NCBI GenBank assembly: GCA_964588355.1
Contig: CAZPPB010000002.1
Location: 16,218-80,217 of the forward strand
From: an uncultured Spirochaetaceae bacterium
Lineage (GTDB): Bacteria > Spirochaetota > Spirochaetia > SZUA-6 > DRHE01
Direction of reading: 5' to 3'
DNA length: 64,000 nucleotides
The notes beneath the pieces were generated by a model. The model was given only the letters and a program-made list of their open reading frames with translations, was not told the origin of the DNA and did not search any database. Position 1 is the stretch's first letter. Every line of letters starts with the position of its first letter. Positions 8,477 to 57,165 of the stretch are shown here, piece by piece. Both the position numbers and the translations under genes were made by a program.

Positions 8477-10409
8477 TATGGGTGACACCATACCGAAACT
8501 GATGCTGGAGCACGTGCGCAGAGAACCGGAGATGACGATCCAGTGGTCAAAAGATGCAACCGGTACGTTCCAGCCGTTCGTCTGGAGACAGGTGCTCGAC
8601 GAGGTCGAGGCCTTTGCCGCGGGTTTGCTGGACCTCGGGATCAAGCGGGGGGATCACATCGGCATGATCTCCGAGAACATGAAAGAGTGGTTTTGGGCGG
8701 ATATGGCCATTCTGTCCATCGGTGCGGTGGACGTGCCCAGGGGATCCGATTCCACGGCCCCCGAGATCCGGTACATCCTGGAACACGCCGAATGCGCCCT
8801 GTGCATCGTGGAGAATCTGGCTCAGCTGGAAAAGGTGCTCTCGATCAAGAAGAGTCTGAAAAGGCTCAAGACCCTCATCGTGCTGGATCCGGATTTCAAG
8901 AAGGTCGACGAAATTGCCGTTGCCCAAATGGCCAAAAACGCCGGCGTCAAGGTGTTTAGTTTCAAAGAGGTGCAGGAGCGGGGCCGGGAATACGCCCGCA
9001 AACATCCGGGTTTTCTCGAGGAGGACATCGCCGAGGGTAAGCCCGAGGATCTGGCCACCCTGATCTACACCTCCGGAACCACCGGGGAACCCAAGGGGGT
9101 GATGCTGACCCACAGCAACTACATGCATCAGATACCAACGCCCCTCAAGCACCTCGATATACGGAAGGGTGATATTTTCCTTTCAGTACTTCCGGTCTGG
9201 CACTCCTACGAACGGGCCATCGGCTATGTAGCCACCTTCGCCGGCTGTTCCATTGCCTATTCCAAACTGGTTGCCCAGGTCATGTTGGAGGACATGGGCA
9301 AGATCAAGCCGCAGATCTTTCCCTCGGTTCCCCGCATCTGGGAGGCGGTGAAGCGGGGCATTATCCGCAACATCGAGTCCGGCAGCTCCGTGAAAAAAGC
9401 CCTGGCCTTCTTCTTCATCTCCGTGGGTGCAGCCTACTCCAAGCTCAAGACGAGGCTCAGGGGCCTGCGGCCCCGCTTCAAGAAGTCCAGCCGCCTCGCG
9501 GATGCCCTGCTCAGCATCCTGCCCTTTCTGCTGCTTGCCCCATTGAATGCCCTTGGACAGCTGTTGGTCTTCAAGAAGATCAAGCACAGGTTGGGGGGCA
9601 AGTTCAAATTCGGCGTGTCAGGAGCCGGAGCCCTGCCGCCCCACGTGGATGAGTTCTTTGCCGCTGCGGGGATCCTGCTGCTCGAAGGTTACGGCCTTAC
9701 CGAAACCTCCCCGATCGTGTCGGTGCGGCAGAGTTTTCACCCGGTTCCCGGAACGATCGGACCGCCTCTGGAACAGGTCGAGGTCAAGGTGCTTGCCGAA
9801 GACGGTAGCGAGCTGCCTCCTGGACACAAGGGCGTGCTCTACATCCGCGGTCCCAACGTGATGAAGGGCTACTACAAGAGGCCGGAGCTGACCGCGCAGA
9901 CCATTACCGCAGACGGTTGGCTGAATACCGGAGATCTGGCCATGCTGAGTTATGACGGGGAGATCAAGATCATGGGACGGGTCAAGGAAACCGTCGTTCT
10001 GCTGGGCGGGGAGAACGTAGAACCCAGCCCGATCGAAGATACCATCTGCGAATCCGACTATGTGGATCAAGTCATGGTCGTCGGCCAGGATCAAAAATAT
10101 TTGGCCGCCCTGGTAGTGCCCAATTTTGAAACCCTGAAAGATTTTGCCGAGGAGAACGGTATCCCCTTCGAAAAGCCCGAAGACCTGCTGAACAACAATG
10201 ACGTGTACAAACTGATCATGGACGAGATCGACTCCAAGATCGGTCCCAAACGGGGCTTCAAACTCTTCGAGCGCATCAACAAGATAAAAATTCTGGTAAA
10301 ACCCTTTGAGAAAGGCGTGGAGATGACCCATACCTTGAAACTCAAACGGGATGTGATCTACGATGAGTACGACAGAGAGATAAAAGAACTATTCAAGGAA
10401 CTTCGTTAG
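8477..10409 (+). CDS. long-chain-fatty-acid--CoA ligase (AMP-binding family)
   Basis: AMP-binding motif LIYTSGTTGEPKGVMLTHSNY, YGLTE, GWLNTGD; ATG 8477 preceded by G-rich RBS. Confidence 0.85.
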
Positions 10410-10799: not shown

Positions 10800-10987
10800 A
10801 GGGAGTATGGCCTGCTTCATCGCCCTCCCGCTGTTCACTCCGGCCTGCCCGTCGGGATCGCCCCCTCGGGGGGGGGCGGTCCTCTTCGTTTCCAGAGCTT
10901 CTTTCGTGACCCTGCTTCTGAACTGCCTCATAGAGGCGCCCCTGTTCGGGCGCAGCTGCGGGGCCGCAGAAATAGTGCGGATAGGAC

Positions 10988-11016
10988 TTGACAGAAAAAG
11001 AATTATATAGTAAATA
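10988..11016 (+). promoter_or_regulatory. candidate sigma-70 promoter for the selenoprotein gene (TTGACA-N17-TAAATA)
   Basis: TTGACA at 10988-10993, TAAATA at 11011-11016, in an AT-rich island ~30 nt upstream of the AAGGTGG RBS. Confidence 0.35.
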
Positions 11017-11045
11017 TTCTATATACAAAATAAGGTGGTGTACCT

Positions 11046-11330
11046 ATGCAGATAACCAGATCGGCTCTCTCAGAGCTGTTCGATGTGCTGAAAGAGAATC
11101 AGGGCAAGAGTCTACGCGTGGTGTTTAAAGGCTTTGGATGAGGCGGTCCCCGTTTGGGGTTGGCTCTGGATGAGCCTCAGGACGGTGACAAGACCTACAA
11201 AGTCGAGGGAATAGACATTCTGGTGGATAAACGGGCAATTCCCTATGCCAGCGAGAGCACCGTAGACTATATCGACAGTTTCTGGGGCAAAGGCTTCACG
11301 ATCCGCCCGGCCTACGGGGGAGCCTGCTAG
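11046..11330 (+). CDS. HesB/IscA-like (A-type Fe-S carrier fold) selenoprotein with in-frame UGA (Sec) at 11139-11141
   Basis: MQITRSALSELFDVLKENQGKSLRVVFKGFG-U-GGPRLGLALDEPQDGDKTYKVEGIDILVDKRAIPYASESTVDYIDSFWGKGFTIRPAYGGAC*; UGA replaces the conserved Cys of the G-G-G-C-x-G motif of IscA/HesB; strong AAGGTGG RBS 7 nt before ATG 11046; no alternative start downstream of the UGA. Confidence 0.7.
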
Positions 11331-12210
11331 GTTCCCTCCGTTCGCCTCTCCGGCGTGATCTAACCAATCCCCTCAGATACTCCAAAATAACAGTCGCTGG
11401 GCCCCAGTCTGCGCGCTCCTGTTGGCGCGCAAGCAGCCCCCGGTAGGATTCCAGTATCAACTCTCGGAACCGCACCACGGTAGCGGGGTCAGGGATCGGC
11501 GCTTCGGCGAACAGCTCCGAGACGAATCTTCTGACTTCCCGGTCATCGTACGCGGGAAACAGGCTAGACAGCAAAAACAGAGAGGGCCCGATGTCGAGCA
11601 GACTGTGCTGCTTCACCAGAAGTATCGCCTCGGTGATTCGCAGGGCCGCTCTATAGGTCTCAGCCAACAGCCGGCTCCCGGATGCATCCTCGGGGTCGAT
11701 TCTCGTCAAGATTTCGCGTGCCCGGAGGTAGTTGTAGCAGACCGTGAGCACGTGGAGGCTGGGAATGCAGTGCAGGTGAGGATCGAAGACGGCAATCAGG
11801 AGGAAGTAGGGATTTGCAGGCGCTGCGCGCCGGGTTGTGGTCGTGGACTGGCAGCGTCGGTACACACTTCCCGATGCACGATACAGCAGGACCAGATCCC
11901 GCATCATCCCTTCGATATCCTTCAGAACGGGTTTCCCGCAAATCCGGTACAGGCGACCCAGAGTCTTCAGCCACATTGTGAAGTAACTGAGGTACCTGCG
12001 AAACAGGTTTGGATCGAAGGGAAGGCGGTCATCCAGCGGATGGGTCACAACCGCCACAGGCCGCAACCCCGGGAGCAGCCGAGATTGGAATTGGGGGAGG
12101 AAAAACTCCCGCAGCGCCGCTTTGAAGATCAGGATGCCTCTGCGTCGAAGCCGGCCGTGTCGAAGGATCAGTCGTACACTTGATCCGAGACCGACCCTCT
12201 CGGTATCCAT
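11296..12210 (-). CDS. hypothetical protein (co-operonic with MinD/ParA-like ATPase)
   Basis: 304-aa ORF 19 nt downstream of the ATPase gene; Arg-rich C-terminus overlapping the selenoprotein gene may be a frame artefact. Confidence 0.45.
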   Translation of the reverse strand: MDTERVGLGSSVRLILRHGRLRRRGILIFKAALREFFLPQFQSRLLPGLRPVAVVTHPLDDRLPFDPNLFRRYLSYFTMWLKTLGRLYRICGKPVLKDIEGMMRDLVLLYRASGSVYRRCQSTTTTRRAAPANPYFLLIAVFDPHLHCIPSLHVLTVCYNYLRAREILTRIDPEDASGSRLLAETYRAALRITEAILLVKQHSLLDIGPSLFLLSSLFPAYDDREVRRFVSELFAEAPIPDPATVVRFRELILESYRGLLARQQERADWGPATVILEYLRGLVRSRRRGERREPSRLPRRPGGS

Positions 12211-24590: not shown

Positions 24591-26285
24591 TCATACCATC
24601 TTGAACATCTGCGACATCCGCCGCCCCAGAATCCGGTTGGCCAGGAATATGGCTGAGAGCACCAGCACGATGAGGATCGTTCCCAGAGCGTAGGCGGGAC
24701 CGATAGTGGCGGAGAACAGATATTCCACGATGGCCACGGAGATCGTTTTCCAGCGGGCGGAGAAGAGGATCACCGTCGTTGAGAGCTCCCCCATCAGCGT
24801 GGCAAAGGATATCACGGCCCCCGCCAGGATGCCCGGTGCCATCAGGGGAAGGGTGATCTTCCTGAAGGTGGTCAACCAGGAAGCCCCGGTGATGGTGGAA
24901 GCCTCCTCTACGGCCACGTCGATCTGGGTCAACGAAGCGGTCGTGGATCTGAATATATAGGGCATGCGGCGGATGAAGAAGCCCACCACCATGATCATCC
25001 AGGTGCCGCTGAGGATGAGAAGACCCGAGGAGAAGCCGACCAGAATGGCCACCCCGACCACGATGCCGGGCAGGATGAAGGGCAGCATGACCGTCAGATC
25101 CAGGATCCAACGGGCCTTCAGATTTTTACGCACGTTGATATAGGAAAGCAGCGTACCGATCACCGAGGCGATCAGGGTAGCCGTAGTGGCCAGAAAAAGG
25201 CTGTTTCTAATGGGCGTCAGAGCGATCTCAAAGATCCTCCGGAAATTGTCGAACGAAAATTTGGTTGGATAGCGGGTGCCGGCCCAGCCCTCGGTGAAGG
25301 ATGTAAAAATCACAGTCAGGTGAGGGAGCAGGGAGAAGAAGATCACGCCGAAGCAGAATACGGTTCCCAGCCACTTCAAGAGCTTGCTCGAGGATACCCG
25401 CGCTGCCTGGGTCGTGCTGGTAATGGTGATGTAGGAGCGTTTGGCCGTCACATACTGGGAGAGGAGGATCGCGAAGGCCACCAGCACTACGTTGACCATG
25501 GCGATGGCCGCGGCGGCGTTGAGGTTGAAGAACCCGGTGACCTGAAAATGGATCAGGGTCGGCAGTACGTAGAAATTTCCTCCCAAAATCGCCGGGACAC
25601 CGAAATTACCCACCGAACGCATGAACACGATCAGAGCCCCGGCCACGATGGCAGGTATGACCAGAGGCAGGGTCACCGTGCGGATGACCCGCCAACGGGA
25701 GGCGCCCATGATTTCGGCGCTTTCCTCGATGTACGGATCCGCCGATATCAAGGCGCCGTAGGTAAGGAGGAAGATGAACGGATAGGTGCTCATGGTTATG
25801 GCGATGATGACCCCCGGTGCGCCGTAAATGTCCGGCAGGGTGAACCCGAAGGCCGCATCCAGAAAATAGTTGATCACTCCCTGCCGTCCGAACAGGAGGA
25901 TCCAGGAGTAGGCTCCTACAAACGGCGGAAGGATCAGAGGCAGGGTGCCGAGGGTGAGGAAGAAGGTTTTGAACGGGGTCTGGGTCTTGGCCACGAAGTA
26001 GGCCATGGGAATACCGATCAGACAGGAAAACAGAACGCAGACCAGACCGACCACCATGGTGTTCAAGAAAGCGCTTCTGTAGAGGGTGGATTTGGAGAAC
26101 TGAGCGAAGTTGGCCAGGGTCAGGTTGCGCAAGGTGGGGGCATCCCCCAGTTTGATGAAGCTGCTGAACACCACTTTGGAAAGCGGATAGACGATGAATA
26201 CGACCAGGATGATCAACGCCAGTCCTAAAACCAGGTAAGGGGTAAACTCAAAGGTCTTCAGCCGCCGGGTGATTTCTCGAGCCAT
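24591..26285 (-). CDS. ABC transporter permease, fused two-domain FbpB/AfuB type
   Basis: 564 aa, two repeated permease halves each with EAA-like loop (EESAEIMGASRWR.. and EEASTITGASWLTTFRKITLP). Confidence 0.85.
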   Translation of the reverse strand: MAREITRRLKTFEFTPYLVLGLALIILVVFIVYPLSKVVFSSFIKLGDAPTLRNLTLANFAQFSKSTLYRSAFLNTMVVGLVCVLFSCLIGIPMAYFVAKTQTPFKTFFLTLGTLPLILPPFVGAYSWILLFGRQGVINYFLDAAFGFTLPDIYGAPGVIIAITMSTYPFIFLLTYGALISADPYIEESAEIMGASRWRVIRTVTLPLVIPAIVAGALIVFMRSVGNFGVPAILGGNFYVLPTLIHFQVTGFFNLNAAAAIAMVNVVLVAFAILLSQYVTAKRSYITITSTTQAARVSSSKLLKWLGTVFCFGVIFFSLLPHLTVIFTSFTEGWAGTRYPTKFSFDNFRRIFEIALTPIRNSLFLATTATLIASVIGTLLSYINVRKNLKARWILDLTVMLPFILPGIVVGVAILVGFSSGLLILSGTWMIMVVGFFIRRMPYIFRSTTASLTQIDVAVEEASTITGASWLTTFRKITLPLMAPGILAGAVISFATLMGELSTTVILFSARWKTISVAIVEYLFSATIGPAYALGTILIVLVLSAIFLANRILGRRMSQMFKMV

Positions 26286-26293
26286 GGGACCTC

Positions 26294-27430
26294 CTAAGCC
26301 TTCTCCAGCTGTTGCCTCTGTTCCGTGGGAAACAGTTTGGCTTCCTGCCCGTGGACCAGGACGGCGACAGCATCGCCCACCCCCACACCATGGACACGGC
26401 GATCCTGATCGACCAGAATCTCCTGCGGATCGTGGTCCTGAAAGATCTCGATGTAATAGCGGACCACCGAGCCGAGGTAGAGGATGACCTTCACCTGACC
26501 TTTCAGGCTGTTCGGATGATTCGCAGCCGCGGAGACCTCCATCTGTTCGGGGCGGACGAAGAGGATCCCCTCCGTATCCTGGTAGCCGCGGACATTGTCC
26601 GAGCTGTTCGTTAGAGTGATCTGTTCGCCAGAACGGAACCGTAAGACCGGGTCTGCGTTGGCTTGGACTTCGCAGGTGAGGAAATTGGCTTGGCCGATGA
26701 AATCCGCCACCCGGATCGTGTTGGGATTTTCGTAGATTTCATCGGGAGTCCCGACCTGGCTGACCTTGCCGGCGTGCATCACGGCGATCCGGTCGGAGAT
26801 CGACAGGGCTTCCTCCTGATCGTGGGTCACATAGATCGTGGTCACTTTGGCCTGCTGTTGAATCCGCCGGATCTCTTCGCGCATGTAGACCCTCAGCTTG
26901 GCATCCAGATTGCTCAGGGGTTCATCCAGAAGCAGAAGCTGGGGATCGTAGACCAAAGCTCGAGCCAGGGCGATCCTCTGCTGCTGACCTCCGGACAACT
27001 CGCTGGGCTTACGCTTTTGAGTCGCCTCCAGTCCCACCAGTTGAATGATCCGGTTGACTTTCTGCTCAGTATCCTTTCGCGGCAGCTTGCGGATTCTCAG
27101 TCCGTAAGCCACGTTTTCGAAGATGGAAAGATGGGGGAACAGAGCGTAGCTCTGGAACACCATACCGATATTGCGCCGGAAAGGGGGGATCGAGGTGAAG
27201 TCCTGACCGAGGAAATCGATCCTCCCGCTGCTCGGTTTCTCGAAACCGGCAACACAGCGCAGCGTGGTGGTCTTCCCGCAGCCGCTGGGGCCGAGAAGAG
27301 TGAACAGTTCTCCTTCTCGAATATCCAGGGAAACGTCGTTCAAAGCCTGAACCTGCTCGTTTTTTCCGCCGAAGACCTTGCTGAGATTCCGGATAGACAA
27401 AGTGATCCGGCTGTTGTCCTGTTCCGTCAT
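26294..27430 (-). CDS. ABC transporter ATP-binding protein (FbpC/AfuC/PotA type)
   Basis: LLGPSGCGKTT, LSGGQQQRIALARAL, LLLDEPLSNLD; C-terminal TOBE-like domain. Confidence 0.9.
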   Translation of the reverse strand: MTEQDNSRITLSIRNLSKVFGGKNEQVQALNDVSLDIREGELFTLLGPSGCGKTTTLRCVAGFEKPSSGRIDFLGQDFTSIPPFRRNIGMVFQSYALFPHLSIFENVAYGLRIRKLPRKDTEQKVNRIIQLVGLEATQKRKPSELSGGQQQRIALARALVYDPQLLLLDEPLSNLDAKLRVYMREEIRRIQQQAKVTTIYVTHDQEEALSISDRIAVMHAGKVSQVGTPDEIYENPNTIRVADFIGQANFLTCEVQANADPVLRFRSGEQITLTNSSDNVRGYQDTEGILFVRPEQMEVSAAANHPNSLKGQVKVILYLGSVVRYYIEIFQDHDPQEILVDQDRRVHGVGVGDAVAVLVHGQEAKLFPTEQRQQLEKA

Positions 27431-27506
27431 TGGGGAAACCTCATTTGGTGATTAAAGAGTAAGCAGGCATGGACGGCTCGTCGAACCGTCCATGCCCGAG
27501 AGTACG

Positions 27507-28487
27507 TTAACGAGTGGCGAAGATCTCTCCAAACTTCTGCAGGTAATCGTTCCTGCTTGCCGAAGCCTTGTTGGCGTCGTACTCGAAGAATTTTATCTCC
27601 CCGGTCGGTTTGAGTCCCGGAGGCGGCGGCACATCGGGACGGGTCATCCTGCGAAAGTGGGGGGCTTGGCAGATAATGGTCATGGCTTCCTTGGTGGTCA
27701 GCCAGTCCATGAAGATCTTTGCATTATCCGGGTTCGGTCCTCCCTTGATGATCCCCGAGGCGTCGAAACGCAGACCCGTGCCTTCACTGGGATACACAGC
27801 TTCCACCGGATTGCCCTTGGCCTTCTCCGTGAACACGTTCCCCTCGCCGGTGATGCCGATGGCGAACTCACCCCGTCCTACAAACGTGTACACCAAAGAC
27901 GATTTCGGTACGAAGGTAGTTACCTGGCGGACGTCGTTGATATGGTCCCACCCGTACAGCCCGACCATCTGGAACAGTTGGGCGTAGGCCGAACCGGAAA
28001 GGGCCGGGTTGGCCATTACGACTTCCCCGCGATATTTGCTGTCTCCCAGGTCCTTCCAGCTCTTAGGAGCATCCCCGAGAGGAATCCTGTCGGTGTTGAT
28101 GATGAACGCCTGGATGTTGAAGCTGAAGCCGAAGTACTTGTTTCCCTTGGCATCTTTAACGTCGTTGGGGAAAGCGGATGCTTCCTTCACCCTGTAGGAG
28201 TCCAGAAGGTCGTAGACCACATCCATATTTTCCTTGGCCATGGCCATGATGATGTCCCCCTGGGGTCTTCTGGCCTCGGCCTGAACACGGGTGATGATCT
28301 CCCCTGAACCCAGCCGGATCTCCTCCACGTCGATGTTGCGGTACTTGGCCTTGAAGGCCCGCACCAAATCTTCTCCCATCTCCACGGATCCGGCATTGTA
28401 GATCACCAGCGTTCCGTCCGCTGAGACGAGCGCCGTGCCGAGCACGAGCATCAGGCCGATCACTACGGGAATGAGTCTTTTTTTCAT
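27507..28487 (-). CDS. ABC transporter periplasmic substrate-binding protein (FbpA/AfuA family)
   Basis: Signal peptide MKKRLIPVVIGLMLVLGTALVSA; cluster D (Fe3+/sugar-phosphate type) SBP layout. Confidence 0.8.
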   Translation of the reverse strand: MKKRLIPVVIGLMLVLGTALVSADGTLVIYNAGSVEMGEDLVRAFKAKYRNIDVEEIRLGSGEIITRVQAEARRPQGDIIMAMAKENMDVVYDLLDSYRVKEASAFPNDVKDAKGNKYFGFSFNIQAFIINTDRIPLGDAPKSWKDLGDSKYRGEVVMANPALSGSAYAQLFQMVGLYGWDHINDVRQVTTFVPKSSLVYTFVGRGEFAIGITGEGNVFTEKAKGNPVEAVYPSEGTGLRFDASGIIKGGPNPDNAKIFMDWLTTKEAMTIICQAPHFRRMTRPDVPPPPGLKPTGEIKFFEYDANKASASRNDYLQKFGEIFATR

Positions 28488-30068: not shown

Positions 30069-31306
30069 TATGTCTTCTCCCCTTTGTCGTTGAGAATCAG
30101 AGCAATCAATTCCCGTTTCCGCCTTTCGAGTTTCTCCTCCGTGTCCGCCTCGACAACCAGACGCAGCTTCGGCTCGGTGCTGCCCGCACGGAGGACGAAC
30201 CACCAGTCGGAAAAATCAACCTGCAGGCCCGAGATCTCCGACACGCTTCCGTTAGGATAAACTTGCCGGACTTTTTTGACTATACCTTCCGCGTTCTCCA
30301 CGGTAAAACTCAATTCACCGGTGGAGAAGTAGCGCTCCAGCGGGTCGACAAGCTCGGACAGCCTCTTTTTCTCCCTGCAGAGGATATTGAGCATGATCAG
30401 GAGAGCCAGCAGGGCAGAGGTGTTGCTCCCAGGGTCAGAAGATATTCGGCAACGCTTCGGGAGGAACGGATATCGCACAGCACCTTCGAGTGTACTCGCA
30501 CTGTGTCGGGATGATGCTTGTAGAAGAAAAGCCCCAACAGGGCTGTGATCCGATCGGCCGCAACCGGTTGCCCCCGTTCGTCGATAAAAATGAGCCGATC
30601 GCCGTCTCCGTCGAAGCATACTCCCAGGTCGGCGTGCTCAGTCAGGACCTTCTCCCGGACCTGGCTGAGGTTCTGCAGCTCCAGGGGATTAGGCCCATGC
30701 TGAGGAAAGCGTCCATCCGCAACGTCATTGATGATGCTGTGTCTTATGGGCAGGTCCGCCACCAGTCGGCCGAAGCCGTAGGCCGCCGCACCGTTGGAGC
30801 AATCCGAGACCAAACGAAGATACCCAATTCCCTTCTTGTACGGTTGCAAGAATTCCAGGTAATCCCCGATGACATCCAGCCGGCGCATTCGTCCCGTTGA
30901 TCGCCTGGCTTTTGGCGCCACCTTCACCATTTCTTCCAACTCTTTCAGGCTCGTGTCAAGCCACCACCGGCACCGCTCCCCTGCCGGAGATCTTCAGCCC
31001 GTTGTATTCCGGTGGATTGTGGGAGGCTGTGATCATGGCGCTGCCGTCAAATCCATAAAATGCATTGGCGAAGTACAGACTGGGCGTGCAGCAGGGACCG
31101 ATGTCGGTGACCTCCGCGCCTGCATCTCTGATGCCTTGGCTGAGAGCGGAGAAGATCTCCTGCGAGGACAGCCGTGGATCTCGTCCCAAAACGATATCTC
31201 GGGCTCCAAGAAGGCCGGGCAGATAGTAGCCGATTCGATAGACCGTCTCCCTGTTCAACTGCTCGGGATAGATGCCCCTGATGTCGTTCCCGGAAAACAG
31301 CGCCAC
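30068..31306 (-). pseudogene. phosphomannomutase/phosphoglucomutase, disrupted by two frameshifts
   Basis: Domain I with active-site TASHNPPEYNGLK in one frame (30956-31306); domains II/III with metal loop CFDGDGDRLIF in a second frame (30397-30939); domain IV GELSFTVE..DWWFVLRAGSTEPKLRLVVEA back in the first frame (30068-30480). Confidence 0.6.
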
Positions 31307-34486: not shown

Positions 34487-36316
34487 ATGGCAGTTAACAC
34501 ACCTGCGGATCTCGTGGGCGGTCGGAAATTTCAGTTTGCCGCCGCTAAGCTCCGCAATCGTCCTGACATCCTGCTGGCTCTTTTATTCCTGGTCGTGCTG
34601 TCGTTTCTGGTCATCGCACCTCTGGTTCAGATCATCTACACGTCTGTGATCTATCAGAGCAACGATCTGCGGGTCGTTCGGGACGCGCGAGCCGGTCAGT
34701 TCACCCTGTACCATTATGCCAGGATTTTCAGCGGGCGCCTGGCCCGCTCGATCTTCTATAAGCCGTTTGTAAACAGCCTGATCGTCGGATTCGGGGTTAC
34801 TCTGTTCGCCATGACTATCGGGGCGCTGCTGGCCTGGGTCCTGGTACGCACCGACATCCACCTCAAGGGTTTTTTCAACTCCGTGATCGTCATCCCCTAC
34901 ATGATGCCATCCTGGGTTATCGCCCTTGCCTGGCTGATCTTCTTCAAAAACGATCGCATAGCGGGCCAGCAGGGAATGCTACAACAGCTGCTGGGGGTGG
35001 GACCTCCGGATTGGTTTTCTTACGGGCTGCTGCCGATCATCATCTGTCTCGGCCTGCACTACTATTCATACTCGTTCCTGCTGGTTTCCGGGGCTCTCAG
35101 AACCGTAGACTCAGAGCTGGAGGAGGCGGGAGCGATCGCCGGACTTTCCAGATCCGCCATACTGCGAAAGATCACGCTTCCGATCGTACTGCCGGCACTC
35201 AGCTCCTCCTTCATTCTCACCTTCACCCGTAGCATGGGAACCTTCGGCACTCCTGCTCTGTTGGGGTTGCCGGTGCGCTTCTTCACTATTCCCACCCGGA
35301 TCTATGCATCGATCAACTCTCGAAACATGGGCGATGCATTTGTGCTGGCGTTGGTGCTGGTGCTGCTGGCTTCTGTGGCCATTTACATCAACAGTCGCAT
35401 CATCGGTATCCGCCGGAGCTTCGTAACGATGCGGGGTAAAGGATTCCGCAGCCATCCGACCAGGCTTGGTGCTCTGCGTGTTCCGCTGACGATCATCGTG
35501 CTCGTATTCCTGCTGGTGGCGGTGTTTCTGCCGGTGGTGATCCTGGGCTACAGCACCTTCATGCTTCTCCCCGGAGACTACTCGTTCTCCAATCTCACCC
35601 TCCATTTCTGGGTTGGGGAAAGCGATTTCAGGATAGCCAGCGGTCAGGAGGGTATCCTGCGCAACGACGGGATCGGCAGGGGCGTATGGAACAGCGTCCG
35701 CCTGGGCGTGCTGGCAGCAGCAATCAACGGGGTCATCGGTCTTCTCATCGGATATTCGGTGGTGCGCAGCCGGGGCCGTCCCCTGTCCAAACTGCTGGAG
35801 GCCGTGTCTTTTGCCCCCTATGTGTTTCCTAGCATTGCTATGGGAGCGATCTACCTGGGTATGTTCGCCCGTCCCCTCGGGCCGATCCCCGCTCTATACG
35901 GAACCTTCGTGCTCCTGGTGCTTATTGTGGTGGTCAAGAATCTGCCCTTCTCTTCACGGTCGGGGATCAGCGCCATGCTGCAGATCGACAAGTCCCTGGA
36001 GGAGAGCGCCCGTATCCATGGGCTCCCCTGGTTCAAGCGTTTTCGAAAAATCATCTTTCCTCTGGCTAGAAGCGGGTTCGTTTCGGGAATGATCCTGACT
36101 TTCATCACCGCCATGAGAGAGCTTTCCCTTTTGATCCTCCTGGTCACACCCGCCACCCGGGTACTCACCTCGGTGATTTTCGAGTACGAGAGCCAGGATC
36201 AGACCCAGCACGCCAATGGGGTCACCCTGATCCTGCTCGCCATTATCGTAGTCGCGAGTCTAGTGGTTCGGCGTTTTTTCGGTCAACGAAGCCTGTCAGG
36301 CTTGAGAGATTCCTGA
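34487..36316 (+). CDS. ABC transporter permease, fused two-domain FbpB/AfuB type
   Basis: 609 aa with two permease repeats (EEAGAIAGLSRSAILRKITLP.. and EESARIHGLPWFKRFRKIIFP). Confidence 0.85.
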   Translation: MAVNTPADLVGGRKFQFAAAKLRNRPDILLALLFLVVLSFLVIAPLVQIIYTSVIYQSNDLRVVRDARAGQFTLYHYARIFSGRLARSIFYKPFVNSLIVGFGVTLFAMTIGALLAWVLVRTDIHLKGFFNSVIVIPYMMPSWVIALAWLIFFKNDRIAGQQGMLQQLLGVGPPDWFSYGLLPIIICLGLHYYSYSFLLVSGALRTVDSELEEAGAIAGLSRSAILRKITLPIVLPALSSSFILTFTRSMGTFGTPALLGLPVRFFTIPTRIYASINSRNMGDAFVLALVLVLLASVAIYINSRIIGIRRSFVTMRGKGFRSHPTRLGALRVPLTIIVLVFLLVAVFLPVVILGYSTFMLLPGDYSFSNLTLHFWVGESDFRIASGQEGILRNDGIGRGVWNSVRLGVLAAAINGVIGLLIGYSVVRSRGRPLSKLLEAVSFAPYVFPSIAMGAIYLGMFARPLGPIPALYGTFVLLVLIVVVKNLPFSSRSGISAMLQIDKSLEESARIHGLPWFKRFRKIIFPLARSGFVSGMILTFITAMRELSLLILLVTPATRVLTSVIFEYESQDQTQHANGVTLILLAIIVVASLVVRRFFGQRSLSGLRDS

Positions 36317-36355
36317 TGCGTCGCATCGGAAAAAAACTTTACTAAGGAGTTCGAT

Positions 36356-37618
36356 ATGAAAACGAAGTATTTGACTCTATCCATTTTGTTCCTTTTCATC
36401 CTTTTGGCCGTCCTTGGCTGCGGCGAAGGCCGTAAGGAGGCGGTTCCGAATGTGTATTCGCCGGAAACGGTGCAGTGGCTCCGGTCGGCGAAGCTGGATG
36501 CCTTTGAGGACAGTCCCCAGGATTGGGCGGAAATCGAGCGTTTGGCCAAGGAGGAGGGACGTGTGGTAGTCTACTCCTCCTCATCCCGGATCGCCAATGT
36601 GGCCGAAGCTTTCGAGGCCACCTATCCGGAAATTACACTCGAGGGCTACGACCTGGGATCGGTGCAGACCCTGGAAAAAACGATCCGGGAGCAGGAAGCC
36701 GGTGTTTACAACGCCGACATCATCACAACCGGTGGATCCGGGCAGGTTATCTACGAGCTGCTGGCCAATCACCGGATCGTGAATTTCGTTCCCGACACGG
36801 TGGGTGATCAGATTTCCGAAGAGATGAAGGATCCTCTTCTGGTCCGCATCAACGAGGCGATCGTCTTCTTCTACAACAGGGAGGCCTATCCCGACGCCCC
36901 GCCGATCGAAAATATCTGGGCGCTCACAACCGAAGAATGGCGAGGGAAAGTTGTGCTTAAAAATCCCCTGGAATCGGAATCCGTGTTCATGGGGGTCTGC
37001 ACCCTGGTCGAACATGCAGATGAGATGGAAGCGGCATACGAGCGCTTCGCCGGCAAGAAGCTCGAGCTCAGTCCCGATGTTCCCGACGCCGGTTATGAGT
37101 TTCTTTACCGCCTGTTGAAAAATGACTTGATCCTTCTCTCCTCAGGCAGCAAGTCCGCCGAAGCTTCCGGCCAGACGGGCCAGCCGGATCCCCCGATCAG
37201 CATCGGGTCCTTCACCTATATCCGCTACAATGACACGAAGGGATTTGCCAATGAGGTATTTCGGGATCTGGACCCTGTTTCCGGCGTGATCTATCCCACC
37301 TACACGGGAATCGCTGCGTATGCGCCCCATCCGAACGCGGCAAAGCTGCTCACAGCCTTCCTGCTTGGATCTCCGGAGATCAATCCGAATTCGGTGATCG
37401 AGGAACCCTACACGGAGGGCGAGAGTGTAGAGCTGCTTCAGGGTTTGGCTCCCTACTACGAGATGGGTTCCCAGAGCCCGAGGAAGGACGTGCCTCCGCC
37501 GGCGGGTGGAGAGATCTGGGACGAGGTAGCTTCCAATTGCTGGACCGTCAGTCCGGAGTTCATGTGGTATGAGGCTCCGAATGTGCAGGATTTCTGGGTC
37601 CAGGAGTCGGCCCAATAG
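36356..37618 (+). CDS. ABC transporter substrate-binding lipoprotein (FbpA/AfuA family)
   Basis: Lipoprotein signal LAVLGCGEG, AAGGAG RBS; SBP fold. Confidence 0.8.
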   Translation: MKTKYLTLSILFLFILLAVLGCGEGRKEAVPNVYSPETVQWLRSAKLDAFEDSPQDWAEIERLAKEEGRVVVYSSSSRIANVAEAFEATYPEITLEGYDLGSVQTLEKTIREQEAGVYNADIITTGGSGQVIYELLANHRIVNFVPDTVGDQISEEMKDPLLVRINEAIVFFYNREAYPDAPPIENIWALTTEEWRGKVVLKNPLESESVFMGVCTLVEHADEMEAAYERFAGKKLELSPDVPDAGYEFLYRLLKNDLILLSSGSKSAEASGQTGQPDPPISIGSFTYIRYNDTKGFANEVFRDLDPVSGVIYPTYTGIAAYAPHPNAAKLLTAFLLGSPEINPNSVIEEPYTEGESVELLQGLAPYYEMGSQSPRKDVPPPAGGEIWDEVASNCWTVSPEFMWYEAPNVQDFWVQESAQ

Positions 37619-37629
37619 GTGAGGGGCGT

Positions 37630-38721
37630 TTGAGCAGCATCGTTCTACAAGACATCAGTAAATCGTACGGCGGGGTAACCGCCGTACGAAATCTTTCTCT
37701 TCATATCGCCGAAGGCCAGTTCGTGACCCTTCTGGGTCCTTCCGGATGCGGCAAGACTACCACTCTGCGAGTCATCGCCGGTCTGGAGGAACCCGACACA
37801 GGGGAGGTGCTAATAGGTGAACGGCTGCTGTTTTCCCGCTCCAGGGGGGTGTTCATCCCCCCTGAAAAGAGGGGACTGGGGCTGATCTTCCAGAGCTATG
37901 CCCTCTGGCCGCACATGACGGTCCGACGCAACATCGCCTTAGGGCTGGAGCAGCAGCGCCTCGCCAAGGATGTCGTACAAAAGAGGGTACAATCGGCACT
38001 GGAAAAGGTTCATCTGACCGGCTACGAAGAGCGGTACCCGTCGGAACTATCCGGCGGTCAGCAGCAGAGGGTGGCGGTAGCCCGGATGGTGGCCGCTGAA
38101 CCGGAGATCTTTCTAATGGACGAACCCCTTTCCAACCTCGACGCCATGCTGCGCATCGACATGCGGGCGGAGCTCAAGCGCTTGCATCACGAGCTGGAAG
38201 CGACCACTGTCTACGTTACCCATGACCAGGTGGAAGCCCTGACCTTGTCGGACCTGATCGCGGTCATGGACTCCGGGGTTGTCCGGCAGATCGGCACGCC
38301 CGAGGATATCTACAAGCGGCCTGAGGACCTGTTCGTAGCCCGCTTCGTGGGCAGTCCCCGGATCAACACGGTAACGGGGCGTATCGTGAGTGAAGACGGT
38401 CGAAGCCAATTTACCGCCGGGCAGCTGTCGATCCCCGTTCAGCCCGATCGATCATTCCCGGGGGAACAGATAGTTGCGGCAGTGCGCCCCGAAGACATCG
38501 AGGTTTCCGGAAAACCGGTGGAGGGGTGGTTGGAATGCAGGGCTTACTCGATCCTTCCGGTGGGCTCGGAAACGATCATCAACGTGCAGTCCTCCGACTT
38601 TTCCCTGTCTGTAAAAGTGAATGGTTTCTCCGATATACAGATGGATGACCCGGTCTGGGTGCAGCTGAATGAATCTGCTGTGAATTTTTACGACAGCCGA
38701 GACGAGCAGCGCATCCCCTGA
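37630..38721 (+). CDS. ABC transporter ATP-binding protein (FbpC/AfuC/PotA type)
   Basis: LLGPSGCGKTT, LSGGQQQRVAVARM, FLMDEPLSNLD; TTG start. Confidence 0.9.
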   Translation: MSSIVLQDISKSYGGVTAVRNLSLHIAEGQFVTLLGPSGCGKTTTLRVIAGLEEPDTGEVLIGERLLFSRSRGVFIPPEKRGLGLIFQSYALWPHMTVRRNIALGLEQQRLAKDVVQKRVQSALEKVHLTGYEERYPSELSGGQQQRVAVARMVAAEPEIFLMDEPLSNLDAMLRIDMRAELKRLHHELEATTVYVTHDQVEALTLSDLIAVMDSGVVRQIGTPEDIYKRPEDLFVARFVGSPRINTVTGRIVSEDGRSQFTAGQLSIPVQPDRSFPGEQIVAAVRPEDIEVSGKPVEGWLECRAYSILPVGSETIINVQSSDFSLSVKVNGFSDIQMDDPVWVQLNESAVNFYDSRDEQRIP

Positions 38722-53257: not shown

Positions 53258-54346
53258 CTAGTCCTCCGCCGGCAGAATGTGAAGGCTCTTCTCCTTGAGA
53301 AGGATCGTCACCTCCTGATCGGTTGTGAAGAGGGTGTGCTCGCGGGGGTTGGGGACCTTAACGGTGATGAGCCTGTCTTCCAGTTCGACTTCATATACGA
53401 TCTCCGAGCCCAGGTATACCGATTCCTTGATCACTCCGGTGAGCCCCTTCCGCCTCTTCGATTCCAGTGCTACGGATTCGGGGCGGACCACGACGACCAC
53501 TTTCATACCCTCCACAAGGCTCTCCGTTACTGCGGACACCTTCAGCTTCGTTCCGTGCATATCCACTGTGGCGCTTGCCGGTGAGTCGATGGATGTGATC
53601 GTGGCCTCGAGGAAATTGGCTTTGCCTATAAAGTCTGCAACGAAGCGATTGGCCGGGTGGGCGTAGATTTCCGACGGGGTGCCGATCTGCTGAATTCGAC
53701 CTTCGTGCATGATCACGACCCTGTCGGACAGGGTCATGGCCTCCTCTTGGTCGTGAGTCACATAAACCGATGTGATGCCGACCCTGCGCTGGAGCTTGCG
53801 GATCTCGATGCGGGTGGATTCCCGCAGCTTGGCGTCGAGATTGGAAAGTGGCTCGTCCAGGAGAAGGACCTTGGGTTCCATGATCAACGAACGAGCCAGA
53901 CTGACCCGCTGCTGCTGGCCCCCGGACAGCTGTGCCGGGGAGCGGTTGCCCATCCCTTTCAGCCCCACCAGGCGCATCACTTCTTCGACTCGTTCTTTGA
54001 TTTGTTTACCGCTCACCCGATGGATCTTCAATCCGTATTGGATATTCTGAGCGACCGTCATGTGCGGGAACAGGGCGTAATTCTGAAACACCATGGTGGT
54101 GGGACGGCGGTTGGGCGGGACGTCGTTCAACCGTTCCCCATCCAGGTAGATGTCTCCGGAAGTCGGAAATTCGAAGCCCGCTATCATCCTCAGCGTGGTG
54201 GTCTTACCGCAGCCCGAAGGACCCAGCAGCGTGACCAATTCGCCTTCCTGCACCTGCAGGCTGACCTGATCCACCGCCACCACGGATTCCTTCGCGCCGC
54301 CGAATACCTTCACCAGATGGTTCAGTACCAGATAGTCATCCCTCAT
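53258..54346 (-). CDS. ABC transporter ATP-binding protein (FbpC/AfuC/PotA type)
   Basis: LLGPSGCGKTT, LSGGQQQRVSLARSL, LLLDEPLSNLD. Confidence 0.9.
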   Translation of the reverse strand: MRDDYLVLNHLVKVFGGAKESVVAVDQVSLQVQEGELVTLLGPSGCGKTTTLRMIAGFEFPTSGDIYLDGERLNDVPPNRRPTTMVFQNYALFPHMTVAQNIQYGLKIHRVSGKQIKERVEEVMRLVGLKGMGNRSPAQLSGGQQQRVSLARSLIMEPKVLLLDEPLSNLDAKLRESTRIEIRKLQRRVGITSVYVTHDQEEAMTLSDRVVIMHEGRIQQIGTPSEIYAHPANRFVADFIGKANFLEATITSIDSPASATVDMHGTKLKVSAVTESLVEGMKVVVVVRPESVALESKRRKGLTGVIKESVYLGSEIVYEVELEDRLITVKVPNPREHTLFTTDQEVTILLKEKSLHILPAED

Positions 54347-54356
54347 ACGCCACTCC

Positions 54357-56069
54357 TTAGCTGATTATAGTGGTGGTACGCACGCCCCGCCCGATCCGGT
54401 TGACCACCAGCTGGATGATGCCCAGGGAGATCATGACGATGACGATCAATAAAAGGCTCATGGCCGCCGCGGGTGCGTATTGGCTGTTGTCCACAAAACC
54501 GAGTATGGCCACCGTAATCAGGTTCCACTTTCCCGAGACCACGAAGATAACGGCGCTGATGGCGGTCATGGCCTTCACGAAACCGAAGGCCAGGCCGGAG
54601 AAGAAGGCCGGTGCGATCATAGGCAGGGTGATCTTGCGAAAGGTCGTGCTGCTGTCCGCTCCCAGGTCTGTAGAGGCTTCCTCGATCGCAGGGTCGATCT
54701 GCTGCAAGGCTGCTATTCCCGAGCGGATACCCACCGGCATGTTCCTGAAAAGGAGCAGCAGCACGATGATCCAGGCGGTGCCCGTCAGGATGAATGGAAA
54801 CAGGGCGGAGCGCTGGTTGAAGGCAAGGATGTAACCGATGCCCACCACGGTCCCGGGCACGGCGAAGGTCAGCATGGAGATGAACTCCATGACACCCCGG
54901 CCGATGAACCGCTTACGGATAACCAGAAAAGCGATGAACATACCCAGTAAACCGGTCAGCGGCGTGGCCAGTGTGGAAAGACTCAAAGAGTCGATGATGT
55001 AGCCCTTCCCGACGCGGAACATCTGGATGTAGTTGTTCAGCGTCAGTGTGCGATCCACCCCCCACAGTTTTTGAAAGGAACCATAGATGATCGTGCCGTA
55101 GAGCAGAAACACCATAGCCGTGAAGGCGATGCAGAGGGTGTACACCGGCACCTTGATATACCACTCCAGGCGCTTGATCGTCGCTGCAGTAGGTTTGCCC
55201 GTCACCGTAACGTAGCTTTTTCGGGAGACCCAGTACTTCTGAAGAAAGAAGGCCACAGTGGTGGGGATGAACAGCAGCACCGCCAGGGTGGCGCCCCGGG
55301 ACAGGTCGTACATGCCCGTGATCTGGAGAAAAGCCTGCACCGAGAGCACCCTGAAGTCCCCGGAAATGATCATCGGATTGCCGAAATCCGCCATGCTCTG
55401 AATGAACACCAGCAGCCAGGCGCTGGCGATCCCTGGGATCGACAAGGGAAGAGTTACGGTGGTAAATACTCTTGCCCGGGAGGCTCCCAGATCCATGGAA
55501 GCCTCCTCCAAGGCCGGATCGATGGCCTGGAGCACGCCGTAGAGAACGAGGAAGGCTGTAGGACCGTAGGCGATCGTTTCGACAAAAACCAGCCCTCCCA
55601 GCCCGTAGATCGAGTACTCACCAAGGATCCGCTTCAGGATGGGTGATAGGCTACCCGCGCGGCCGAACAGAAGGATCGTGGACAGGGCCACTACGAACGG
55701 TGGAGAAATGATGGGGAAGGTTATGGTCTGGCGGAAGAAGCCCTTCAACGGCAGGGGAGTGCGGGTCAGAGCGTAGGCGAATCCGAAGCCCATGATCGAA
55801 CCCGTGGTAGCGGTGATCGCTCCCAGTAGAATCGAGTTAAGGAACGGCTGGTAGTAGTAGCGAGCGGAAAACACGGCCGCATAGTTGGATGGATCGAACT
55901 TCTCGTCGACTACCAGACTGTAGCGGAAGACCTGGAATATGGGAAAGGCTACGAAGAGGATGAGGAAGTAGAAGATCGCCAGGATCGCCACCAGCAGCAA
56001 GGGCTCCTTCCATATGATCCGCATGCTGGCAATGATCTCTTTGGCACGGCGGGAGGTCGCATTCGTCAT
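54357..56069 (-). CDS. ABC transporter permease, fused two-domain FbpB/AfuB type
   Basis: 570 aa, two permease repeats (EEASMDLGASRARVF.. and EEASTDLGADSSTTFRKITLP). Confidence 0.85.
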   Translation of the reverse strand: MTNATSRRAKEIIASMRIIWKEPLLLVAILAIFYFLILFVAFPIFQVFRYSLVVDEKFDPSNYAAVFSARYYYQPFLNSILLGAITATTGSIMGFGFAYALTRTPLPLKGFFRQTITFPIISPPFVVALSTILLFGRAGSLSPILKRILGEYSIYGLGGLVFVETIAYGPTAFLVLYGVLQAIDPALEEASMDLGASRARVFTTVTLPLSIPGIASAWLLVFIQSMADFGNPMIISGDFRVLSVQAFLQITGMYDLSRGATLAVLLFIPTTVAFFLQKYWVSRKSYVTVTGKPTAATIKRLEWYIKVPVYTLCIAFTAMVFLLYGTIIYGSFQKLWGVDRTLTLNNYIQMFRVGKGYIIDSLSLSTLATPLTGLLGMFIAFLVIRKRFIGRGVMEFISMLTFAVPGTVVGIGYILAFNQRSALFPFILTGTAWIIVLLLLFRNMPVGIRSGIAALQQIDPAIEEASTDLGADSSTTFRKITLPMIAPAFFSGLAFGFVKAMTAISAVIFVVSGKWNLITVAILGFVDNSQYAPAAAMSLLLIVIVMISLGIIQLVVNRIGRGVRTTTIIS

Positions 56070-56163
56070 CTCTTTCTGGATGCCTCCTCGGATTATAGAG
56101 AAAAATCCCCACCCCTCAAAGGGTGAGGGGCGGGGAGATCTGTCTAAGTGGTATGGTCGCCGA

Positions 56164-57165
56164 TTACTTGCCGATCCGGTCCCGCCAGGCCTCGATCAGA
56201 CGATCCTTGTTTTCTCCGGCCCAGATGGCATCGTAGTCGATCAGCTTGACCTGATCCATGGTCACGGCTCCCGAAGCCACGGTGGCTTTGGGATTGACCG
56301 GCAGCCGGCTGTACTGCTGGAACAGGTCCTGGGCTTTTTTCGTGAAGCACCAGTCGATGAACTGTTTGCCCAGCTCCGGTTCGGGGCCGCCTTTGATCAG
56401 GGAAAGACCACCAACCTCGTATCCGGTTCCTTCTTCCGGGAAGGTCATGACCACCGGATAGCCCTGGTTGATCCCTTTGGCTACGATATCGTGGGAGAAG
56501 GCTATCCCCACGCCGACCTCTCCGAGACCCACCATGGGGATGCAGCCGGTGCCGGATTTCGTGTATTGGAATATGCTCTGTCTGTCGAACCGCTCCCACC
56601 AGTCGAGGGTTTCATCCTCACCGAGCATCTGCACCAGGGTGGCGTAGGTCGTATAGGCCGTGCCGGATGTGTAGGGATAGGCCATAGCCACGTTCTTGGC
56701 AAAGGCGGGATTCAGCAGGTCTCTCCAGGAAGTCGGAGCCTTTGCGCCCGTCTTGCTGAGGAAATCCTTGTTGCTGATGAAGCCGATCGCTCCTGTGTAG
56801 AAACCGGTCCACGCCCAGTCGTCTGCGTGGAGCTGTGGCTGGAGTTGAAAATCGGTGTTCGGGCGGTACGGAGCCAGCAGACCCTTGCTGGCCGCATTGA
56901 TGTGGGACGTGTTTGAGCCCGCATGCCAGACGCTGGACTGGGGATTGCTGGCCTCCGCCTCTACGCGGGCCAGGACCTCCCCGGAAGACATGCGCACCCA
57001 CTCCACGTCGATGCCGGTCTCCGCTTCGAAAGCCTCGATATAATACTGAGCCTCTTCGGTGTCGAAGGCCGTGTAGATGTGGAGCACTCGCGGCTCCTGC
57101 CCGGGGCTACCGAAGCCTGCCGCGGCAATTGCTGCGAGCAGCAATACCAGAAACAAACGTTTCAT
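56164..57165 (-). CDS. ABC transporter periplasmic substrate-binding protein (FbpA/AfuA family)
   Basis: Signal peptide MKRLFLVLLLAAIAAAGFG; SBP fold. Confidence 0.8.
   Translation of the reverse strand: MKRLFLVLLLAAIAAAGFGSPGQEPRVLHIYTAFDTEEAQYYIEAFEAETGIDVEWVRMSSGEVLARVEAEASNPQSSVWHAGSNTSHINAASKGLLAPYRPNTDFQLQPQLHADDWAWTGFYTGAIGFISNKDFLSKTGAKAPTSWRDLLNPAFAKNVAMAYPYTSGTAYTTYATLVQMLGEDETLDWWERFDRQSIFQYTKSGTGCIPMVGLGEVGVGIAFSHDIVAKGINQGYPVVMTFPEEGTGYEVGGLSLIKGGPEPELGKQFIDWCFTKKAQDLFQQYSRLPVNPKATVASGAVTMDQVKLIDYDAIWAGENKDRLIEAWRDRIGK

Follow-up and report, generated by a model that had tools for sequence, protein, structure and literature searches.

A selenoprotein-like gene split by an in-frame TGA

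Within a 64-kb stretch of DNA from an uncultured Spirochaetaceae bacterium (contig CAZPPB010000002.1; the whole stretch of 64,000 nucleotides is referred to as the window, and its numbering is used throughout), positions 11046–11330 most likely constitute one gene, whose product is a selenoprotein of 94 residues with the fold of HesB/IscA proteins (A-type Fe-S carriers). In the mechanical list of open reading frames (ORFs), the locus is represented only by an ORF of 31 amino acids (aa; 11046–11141) and a TTG-started ORF of 58 aa (11154–11330), which flank an in-frame TGA. Re-reading of the sequence confirmed the ATG, TGA and TAG positions given in a first-pass annotation of the window (Table 1), as well as the 94-residue product obtained by reading through the TGA, MQITRSALSELFDVLKENQGKSLRVVFKGFG-U-GGPRLGLALDEPQDGDKTYKVEGIDILVDKRAIPYASESTVDYIDSFWGKGFTIRPAYGGAC. 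The residues next to the putative selenocysteine (Sec, U), Sec32, are MQITRSALSELFDVLKENQGKSLRVVFKGFG-U-GGPRLGLALDEPQ, and the protein ends in AYGGAC. The ribosome-binding site which that annotation had placed ahead of the ATG was likewise found, and most relatives have a purine-rich (A/G)AGGTGA aligned at this position. Its statement that the C-terminal part lacks a start codon of its own had to be abandoned, because TTG 11154 is a possible start and is used as such by public gene callers (P0003–P0017).

A search of the read-through sequence, with Cys at the TGA, against 5.8 billion predicted proteins yielded 17 relatives. Fifteen are calls of 56–58 aa which cover the post-TGA part only, and the other two (P0001 and P0002) are 95 aa long and have Trp at the Sec codon. 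No close Cys orthologue was found among the 5.8 billion proteins, the relatives all being TGA-split or translated under genetic code 4. On the DNA level, the same in-frame TGA is present in 14 of 14 fetched metagenome loci, with the 31 upstream codons conserved as protein. A genome scan, which covered one genome per species and used degenerate back-translated peptide patterns, returned 27 loci, 22 of them with TGA at the same column; the TGA-bearing loci belong to uncultured Spirochaetaceae (83–89% identity), Desulfuromonas, Deferribacterales, Desulfobulbus, Desulfovibrio, Thermodesulfobacteriota, Bacteriovoracaceae, Acetofilamentum and, with two loci, Bacillales (Pseudalkalibacillus and Ammoniphilus). 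The TGA, both flanking frames and a 15-nt hairpin described below are thus kept across 36 related loci (14 metagenome, 22 genome), a pattern that goes beyond chance, and the TGA is present in all 27 distinct sequences.

The position of the TGA at the first conserved Cys of IscA/HesB proteins, as proposed in the first-pass annotation, is borne out by the alignment, in which this column coincides with the Cys of GGCSG in 1nwb, 2apn and 1r94; the solved IscA, SufA, AQ_1857 and HI1723 proteins all have Cys there. Archaeal IscA-type proteins (Woesearchaeota, Methanosarcinales) show GGCSS at the Sec column, and at the Sec codon of L031, a homologue from the Desulfovibrionaceae, TGT (Cys) is found. 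Homologues with a sense codon in a different frame had been named as evidence that would speak against a selenoprotein; the TGA-bearing homologues share one frame, and the sense codon of L031 is this TGT.

Selection was assessed in 13 distinct Spirochaetaceae genes. The ratio of non-synonymous to synonymous change (pN/pS) is 0.139 for codons 1–31 and 0.143 for codons 45–94, indicating equally purifying selection on either side of the TGA. Variable columns fall mostly on third codon positions, with 12, 6 and 28 columns at the first, second and third positions before the TGA, and 13, 11 and 48 after it.

Table 1. Coordinates of the selenoprotein-like gene and associated elements in the window
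Feature	Position	Strand	Remarks
−35-like TTGACA, element of a putative promoter of the gene's own	10988..10993	+	TTGAC invariant in 12 Spirochaetaceae loci
AT-rich palindrome TATATAG-N8-CTATATA, candidate operator	11004..11025	.	Lies over the expected −10; conserved in 12 loci
Shine-Dalgarno-like AAGGTGG	11032..11038	+	7 nt 5' of ATG; from the sequence
HesB/IscA-like selenoprotein coding sequence (predicted)	11046..11330	+	94 codons + TAG; TGA at codon 32 read through
Start codon ATG	11046–11048	+	From the sequence
In-frame TGA, putative selenocysteine codon (Sec32), motif U-G-G-P	11139..11141	+	First conserved Cys position of A-type carriers
Candidate bacterial SECIS hairpin GGCUC-UGGAU-GAGCC	11162..11176	+	5-bp stem, 5-nt loop; encodes (L)ALDEP
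Cys94 codon	11325..11327	+	Last residue; sole Cys besides the Sec32 site; alignment to 1nwb
Stop codon TAG	11328–11330	+	From the sequence

The hairpin downstream of the UGA codon and the fate of the UGA

The segment 11139–11200, which the first-pass annotation had singled out as the place to look for a selenocysteine insertion sequence (SECIS), does contain a hairpin matching the published bacterial model 3' of the TGA, located 21–35 nt past the UGA codon. This model (PMC13188914 Fig. 2A) asks for an apical loop of 3–9 nt, an upper stem of 4–16 bp, G[G/U] within the first positions of the loop, a distance of 16–37 nt between UGA and loop, and a free energy no higher than −7.5 kcal/mol. The hairpin of the window agrees with every one of these constraints, with a loop of 5 nt (UGGAU), a stem of 5 bp, G at loop position 2 followed by another G, a UGA-to-loop spacing of 25 nt and a folding energy of −8.8 kcal/mol. 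Bacterial SECIS elements of different genes are generally unlike each other (PMC13188914), whereas the element considered here is sequence-invariant across phyla.

The string G GCT CTG GAT GAG CC is shared by the 27 distinct TGA-bearing sequences, barring a change from GAT to GAC in two; for codons +8 to +11, this amounts to GCT in 27/27, CTG in 27/27, GAT in 25/27 and GAG in 27/27. Other invariant residues vary synonymously in these 27 sequences, with four codons for Pro+3, five for Leu+5 and two for Asp+16. Within the Spirochaetaceae clade, the synonymous change pS is 0.033 in the six hairpin codons, as compared to 0.39–0.58 in the flanks. Since the scan patterns were degenerate back-translated peptides, the nucleotide invariance of the hairpin is not an artefact of the search. 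The consensus structure computed by RNAalifold is exactly this hairpin (−8.88 kcal/mol), its five pairs being intact in 24 of 24 sequences, and the 15-mer occurs once in the window versus 0.03 occurrences expected. Nucleotide identity of the 15-nt element from Bacillota to Spirochaetota may reflect a spread of the gene as one unit with the SECIS candidate it contains.

In the Cys homologue L031 the hairpin in the same register is broken (−2.4 versus −8.8 kcal/mol). An alternative hairpin, CUGGCC/8-nt loop/GGCCGG with −9.0 kcal/mol, can form at positions 2292–2351 of L031 and could represent a fossil SECIS from before Sec was exchanged for Cys. A fossil-like SECIS remnant has been described for a Cys form of the HesB-like protein in Desulfitobacterium (PMC1794560). 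A longer lower stem, CCGUUU/GGACGG, present in the minimum-free-energy structure of 11139–11200, was dropped as a candidate, as its codons vary without compensation in the relatives; what is conserved is the 5-bp hairpin alone.

Several results weigh against recoding. The stem is short, its 5 bp lying at the low end of the range of the consensus model (bSECISearch, PMC13188914). No compensatory changes were found in it, all five pairs being invariant in the 24 sequences; because the stem is invariant, covariation is not available as evidence, and the support comes from conservation and suppressed synonymous change. Rfam gave no match of any kind for the whole window at gathering thresholds and none to a SECIS family in an E-value search of 11000–11350, and the 62-nt segment 11139–11200 folds no better than its shuffled versions (z = −0.78). 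Moreover, selA, selB and selD are absent from the 40 long ORFs of the window. This agrees with the first-pass annotation, which had noted that none of selABCD is in the window, and the tRNA for selenocysteine was likewise found neither in the window, which contains no tRNA at all, nor in 25 related loci. A tblastn search with approximate Escherichia coli SelD and SelA queries against 519 kb (the window and the loci) produced no hits and was uninformative. We infer the capacity of the host for Sec decoding from the conservation of what looks like a functional Sec gene.

Taking these points together, recoding of the UGA at codon 32 as selenocysteine appears highly probable, the mechanism being well supported at the sequence level. 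The UGA would then not be read as a stop, and the hairpin would serve as a bacterial SECIS: SelB-GTP carrying Sec-tRNA(Sec) would bind the G-containing apical loop and bring selenocysteine to the ribosome while it pauses at the UGA, after which translation would resume and continue up to the TAG.

Read-through without selenocysteine, with Trp, Cys or Arg inserted by a near-cognate or suppressor tRNA or with TGA reassigned as in genetic code 4 or 25, is very unlikely. It could draw on the public translations of P0001 and P0002, which carry W at the Sec codon (P0001 from L009, 228–515; P0002 from L010, 203–490; both under code 4), and on the fact that Sec machinery was not seen within the window. 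However, the DNA at the Trp position reads TGA, and therefore the Trp in both proteins is a gene-calling artefact of code 4 on short contigs (506–565 bp), which is able to mislead homology checks. TGA ordinarily acts as a stop in 17 of the 43 long ORFs of the window, and the genetic code has thus not been reassigned. The TGA at codon 32 is shared by standard-code phyla known for selenoproteins (PMC1794560), it stands exactly at the Cys column, and it is followed by a hairpin which fits the SECIS model and is held at synonymous sites.

A still smaller probability attaches to two small genes, a 31-aa peptide ending at the UGA and a 58-aa protein starting from TTG 11154. Both the ORF list and the public annotations make this very split, and the TTG exists; however, distant relatives have other Leu codons in its place, such as CTT, CTC and CTA, which are unable to start translation. 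The four codons between TGA and TTG (G-G-P-R/S) are free of non-synonymous changes in the Spirochaetaceae clade. Neither half is a domain by itself. Taken together, the two halves can be aligned over their full length with A-type carriers, which consist of a single chain, and with the Cys homologue.

The hairpin has a GGA in its loop and might be a site for a CsrA/RsmA-type regulator or another RNA-binding factor instead of a SECIS, which we consider more improbable again. The sole Rfam match in 11000–11350 is a weak, GGA-loop-driven one to PrrB/RsmZ (13.1 bits, E = 0.84), which is at chance level and well short of the gathering score (44). The hairpin strictly co-occurs with the TGA across phyla, it is disrupted in the Cys homologue L031, and both its position and its loop are as expected from the SECIS model. 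A broken iscA-like gene, be it a pseudogene or the product of faulty sequencing or assembly, might be suspected in a window which also holds a frameshifted-looking PGM/PMM gene (30310–31306) and a deleted plsY, but is effectively refuted by the identical TGA in 36 independent loci, which come from numerous assemblies and phyla, and by the purifying selection on either side of it.

Relation to HesB-like selenoproteins and possible function

Profile searches, run with Cys at position 32, placed three families related to the HesB/IscA proteins on top. The best NCBIfam match is NF038090 ("IscA_HesB_Se") with 68.6 bits (E = 4.7e-19; cut-off 85), followed by TIGR00049 with 47.4 bits (cut-off 58.8) and TIGR01911 ("HesB_rel_seleno") with 45.1 bits (cut-off 66.35); the Pfam family PF01521 (Fe-S_biosyn) scored 20.3 bits (E = 6.7e-4; gathering score 26.3). 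The HesB-like homology expected by the first-pass annotation was thus recovered in the ranking of the families, while a match to PF01521 or to the NCBIfam models at their own cut-offs was not. Searches for homologous solved structures pointed in the same direction, with matches to Aquifex AQ_1857 (1nwb, E = 6.8e-11), HI1723, E. coli IscA, T. elongatus IscA and SufA. As a proxy for the window protein, the structure model of the 64%-identical homologue P0001 was used; the nine best Foldseek matches of this model in the PDB are all A-type carriers, with template modelling (TM) scores of 0.63–0.74. The IscA/HesB fold is therewith predicted for the window protein.

Three distant relatives, which have both the TGA and the hairpin in common with the window gene, exceed the cut-off of NF038090 (L028, 128.9 bits; L030, 113 bits; L033, 110.6 bits), whereas the clade relatives of the window protein score 69.6–71.9 bits, and the Spirochaetaceae, Desulfuromonas, Deferribacterales and Bacillales members are all below it. 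Because the distant relatives pass and the clade of the window protein stays below, the window protein is best placed, as judged from sequence, in a divergent sister clade of this curated selenoprotein subfamily, and is no member of it by the NCBI threshold. The passing relatives share with the window protein the TGA column, the identical GGCUCUGGAUGAGCC hairpin and the motif ...U-x-G-P-x-L-[GS]-L-A-L-D-E-P-Q. They differ from it in score (68–72 bits for the window protein and the Spirochaetaceae clade, below 85), in length (104–115 aa, as compared to 94 aa) and in having a tail rich in Cys (CxC or CxxC). In the Spirochaetaceae clade, the protein terminates with a single Cys (GGAC, or GC in L023), while every other clade has a CC or CxC-type tail.

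IscA and SufA have three conserved ligand cysteines, arranged as C...CxC. Compared with the A-type carriers IscA, SufA and ErpA (PF01521; 1r94, 1s98, 1x0g, 2d2a, 2apn, 1nwb), with which the window protein would share the fold and does share detectable homology, their first ligand Cys corresponds to Sec32, and the first Cys of their CxC motif to Cys94. The latter correspondence follows from the alignment with 1nwb, and Cys94 is invariant in our alignment A1. As another difference, the window gene lies outside any isc, suf or nif operon. For HesB-like selenoproteins, a UxGP motif is listed under TIGR01911 (PMC13188914 Table 1); the window protein has it as U32-G-G-P35.

A family of HesB-like selenoproteins in anaerobes, which the first-pass annotation had mentioned, does exist (PMC1794560, PMC13188914) and was described in 2004–2006. 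Its members (TIGR01911) are, as is predicted for the window protein, small HesB/IscA homologues in which Sec stands at the position of the first conserved Cys; they have the UxGP motif and Cys homologues, and they are found in anaerobes including Desulfovibrio, Desulfuromonas and Geobacter relatives. The 2006 census by Zhang et al. counted 11 bacterial HesB-like selenoproteins, from Desulfovibrio, Geobacter, Desulfuromonas, Syntrophus, Alkaliphilus and Symbiobacterium; for T. denticola, the sole selenoprotein-rich spirochaete of that census, no HesB-like protein was listed (PMC1794560). The occurrence in Spirochaetaceae accordingly extends the distribution listed in 2006 (PMC1794560). A precedent comes from Methanococcus maripaludis, where mutagenesis together with 75Se labelling established the HesB-like protein as a selenoprotein (PMC11097638).

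The sequence comparisons support the interpretation of the first-pass annotation, an unannotated HesB-like/IscA selenoprotein gene, and identify its candidate SECIS; the gene falls in a divergent Spirochaetaceae clade of a long-known family. The family and recoding mechanism are well established, and the current understanding of both is unchanged. In public data, the clade is systematically mis-annotated, appearing as a pair of ORFs of 31 aa and 56–58 aa or with Trp under code 4, and it scores below the NCBIfam cut-offs that would rescue its annotation. The combination of the 15-nt SECIS, UxGP and LALDEPQ provides a simple detector. The gene marks the host lineage within the Spirochaetaceae as a probable user of selenocysteine, and as a minimal member of 94 residues, with Sec32 and Cys94 as the only reactive residues and no close relative of the Cys type, its product would be a clean subject for studying the role of selenium in an A-type carrier scaffold.

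We infer the role of the protein from homology only. Sec32 would replace the first cluster-ligating Cys of IscA-type carriers and form a reactive site with the C-terminal Cys94. We tentatively propose, with somewhat less than even confidence, that a homodimer transiently binds iron or an Fe-S cluster via two Sec and two Cys residues and passes it to client proteins under anoxia. As the main alternative, the same fold would serve in Sec/Cys redox chemistry or in chalcogen transfer.

Some observations weigh against the overall reading. The sequence stops at Cys94 and thus lacks the third ligand Cys, which detracts from the assignment as an Fe-S carrier; none of the family cut-offs mentioned above was reached; and the fold model is a proxy of low confidence, with a predicted local distance difference test (pLDDT) score of 63, a predicted TM (pTM) score of 0.52 and a shallow underlying alignment. 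The function of HesB-like selenoproteins is unclear even where they have been studied (PMC11097638). Because the search of 5.8 billion proteins gave no close Cys orthologue, the last Cys of the CxC motif has been lost, the scores are below the cut-offs and a palindromic operator candidate is conserved (see below), the Spirochaetaceae clade may also be a functionally distinct HesB-like offshoot, obligately dependent on Sec, with Sec32 and Cys94 as reactive residues acting in selenenyl-sulfide redox chemistry or in chalcogen or metal transfer, and under dedicated transcriptional control that is possibly responsive to selenium, iron or the redox state, instead of being a conventional Fe-S carrier. 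We regard this offshoot as rather unlikely.

Putative promoter region and neighbouring genes

Of the promoter TTGACA-N17-TAAATA indicated by the first-pass annotation, the −35 element has stood up to comparison and the −10 element has not. The conserved TTGAC is embedded in upstream DNA that is otherwise unalignable. The TAAATA sequence (11011–11016, 17 nt past TTGACA) matches TATAAT in three of six positions and lacks the final T, and a consensus promoter scan called no promoter at TTGACA-N17-TAAATA, the −10 being weak. The arms of the palindrome over the expected −10 are 7 nt long and 100% complementary, with the consensus TATATAGTA-ATAA-TACTATATA. TTGACA together with this palindrome suggests a regulated promoter of the gene's own, and the palindrome is probably the operator of a regulator. 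Some relatives, namely L001 (~9840–9880) and also L012, L015, L016 and L017, have an insertion of ~26 nt with another palindrome, CGATATC...GATATCG. It follows the promoter palindrome and precedes the ribosome-binding site, and the window is without it.

The window is syntenic with contigs of Spirochaetaceae metagenome-assembled genomes at 80–83% nucleotide identity. The gene order in the relatives is acyl-CoA-synthetase-like gene, response regulator gene, plsY, selenoprotein gene, convergent gene and ParA/MinD-like ATPase gene. The convergent gene (11296–12210, minus strand) codes for 304 aa, extends over the final 35 nt of the selenoprotein gene and has no Pfam or NCBIfam match; it is kept at this place in all Spirochaetaceae loci, with 294–309 aa. 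Upstream of the selenoprotein gene, a terminator-like hairpin with a G-run is located at 10854–10883. The selenoprotein gene appears to be monocistronic, situated between the response-regulator gene and the convergent gene.

In the relatives, plsY (glycerol-3-phosphate acyltransferase) comprises ~675 bp, while the window has only ~184 bp at this place (10800–11045). About 54 nt of the 5' end of plsY are left, forming the start of an ORF at 10807–11010, and are followed by the hairpin at 10854–10883. Either a deletion has removed the rest of plsY, or the assembly is at fault here.

A phosphoglucomutase/phosphomannomutase (PGM/PMM) gene at 30310–31306 (minus strand) is broken, with the domains PGM_PMM_I (97.7 bits) and PGM_PMM_II (63.7 bits) in different frames; it is a frameshifted pseudogene or the result of a sequencing error, and no selenoprotein gene. 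Ten other TGA-split ORFs of the window were considered as candidates; none has a Pfam domain spanning its TGA, and two were rejected as fragments of this PGM/PMM gene. Three sets of ATP-binding cassette (ABC) transporter genes are located at 24591–28487, 34487–38721 and 53258–57165. Their best NCBIfam matches, which are below the cut-offs, are of the PhnS2/PhnT2/PhnU2 type, and the sets are putative uptake systems for 2-aminoethylphosphonate or of the iron type, a substrate-binding component being present in two of the three.

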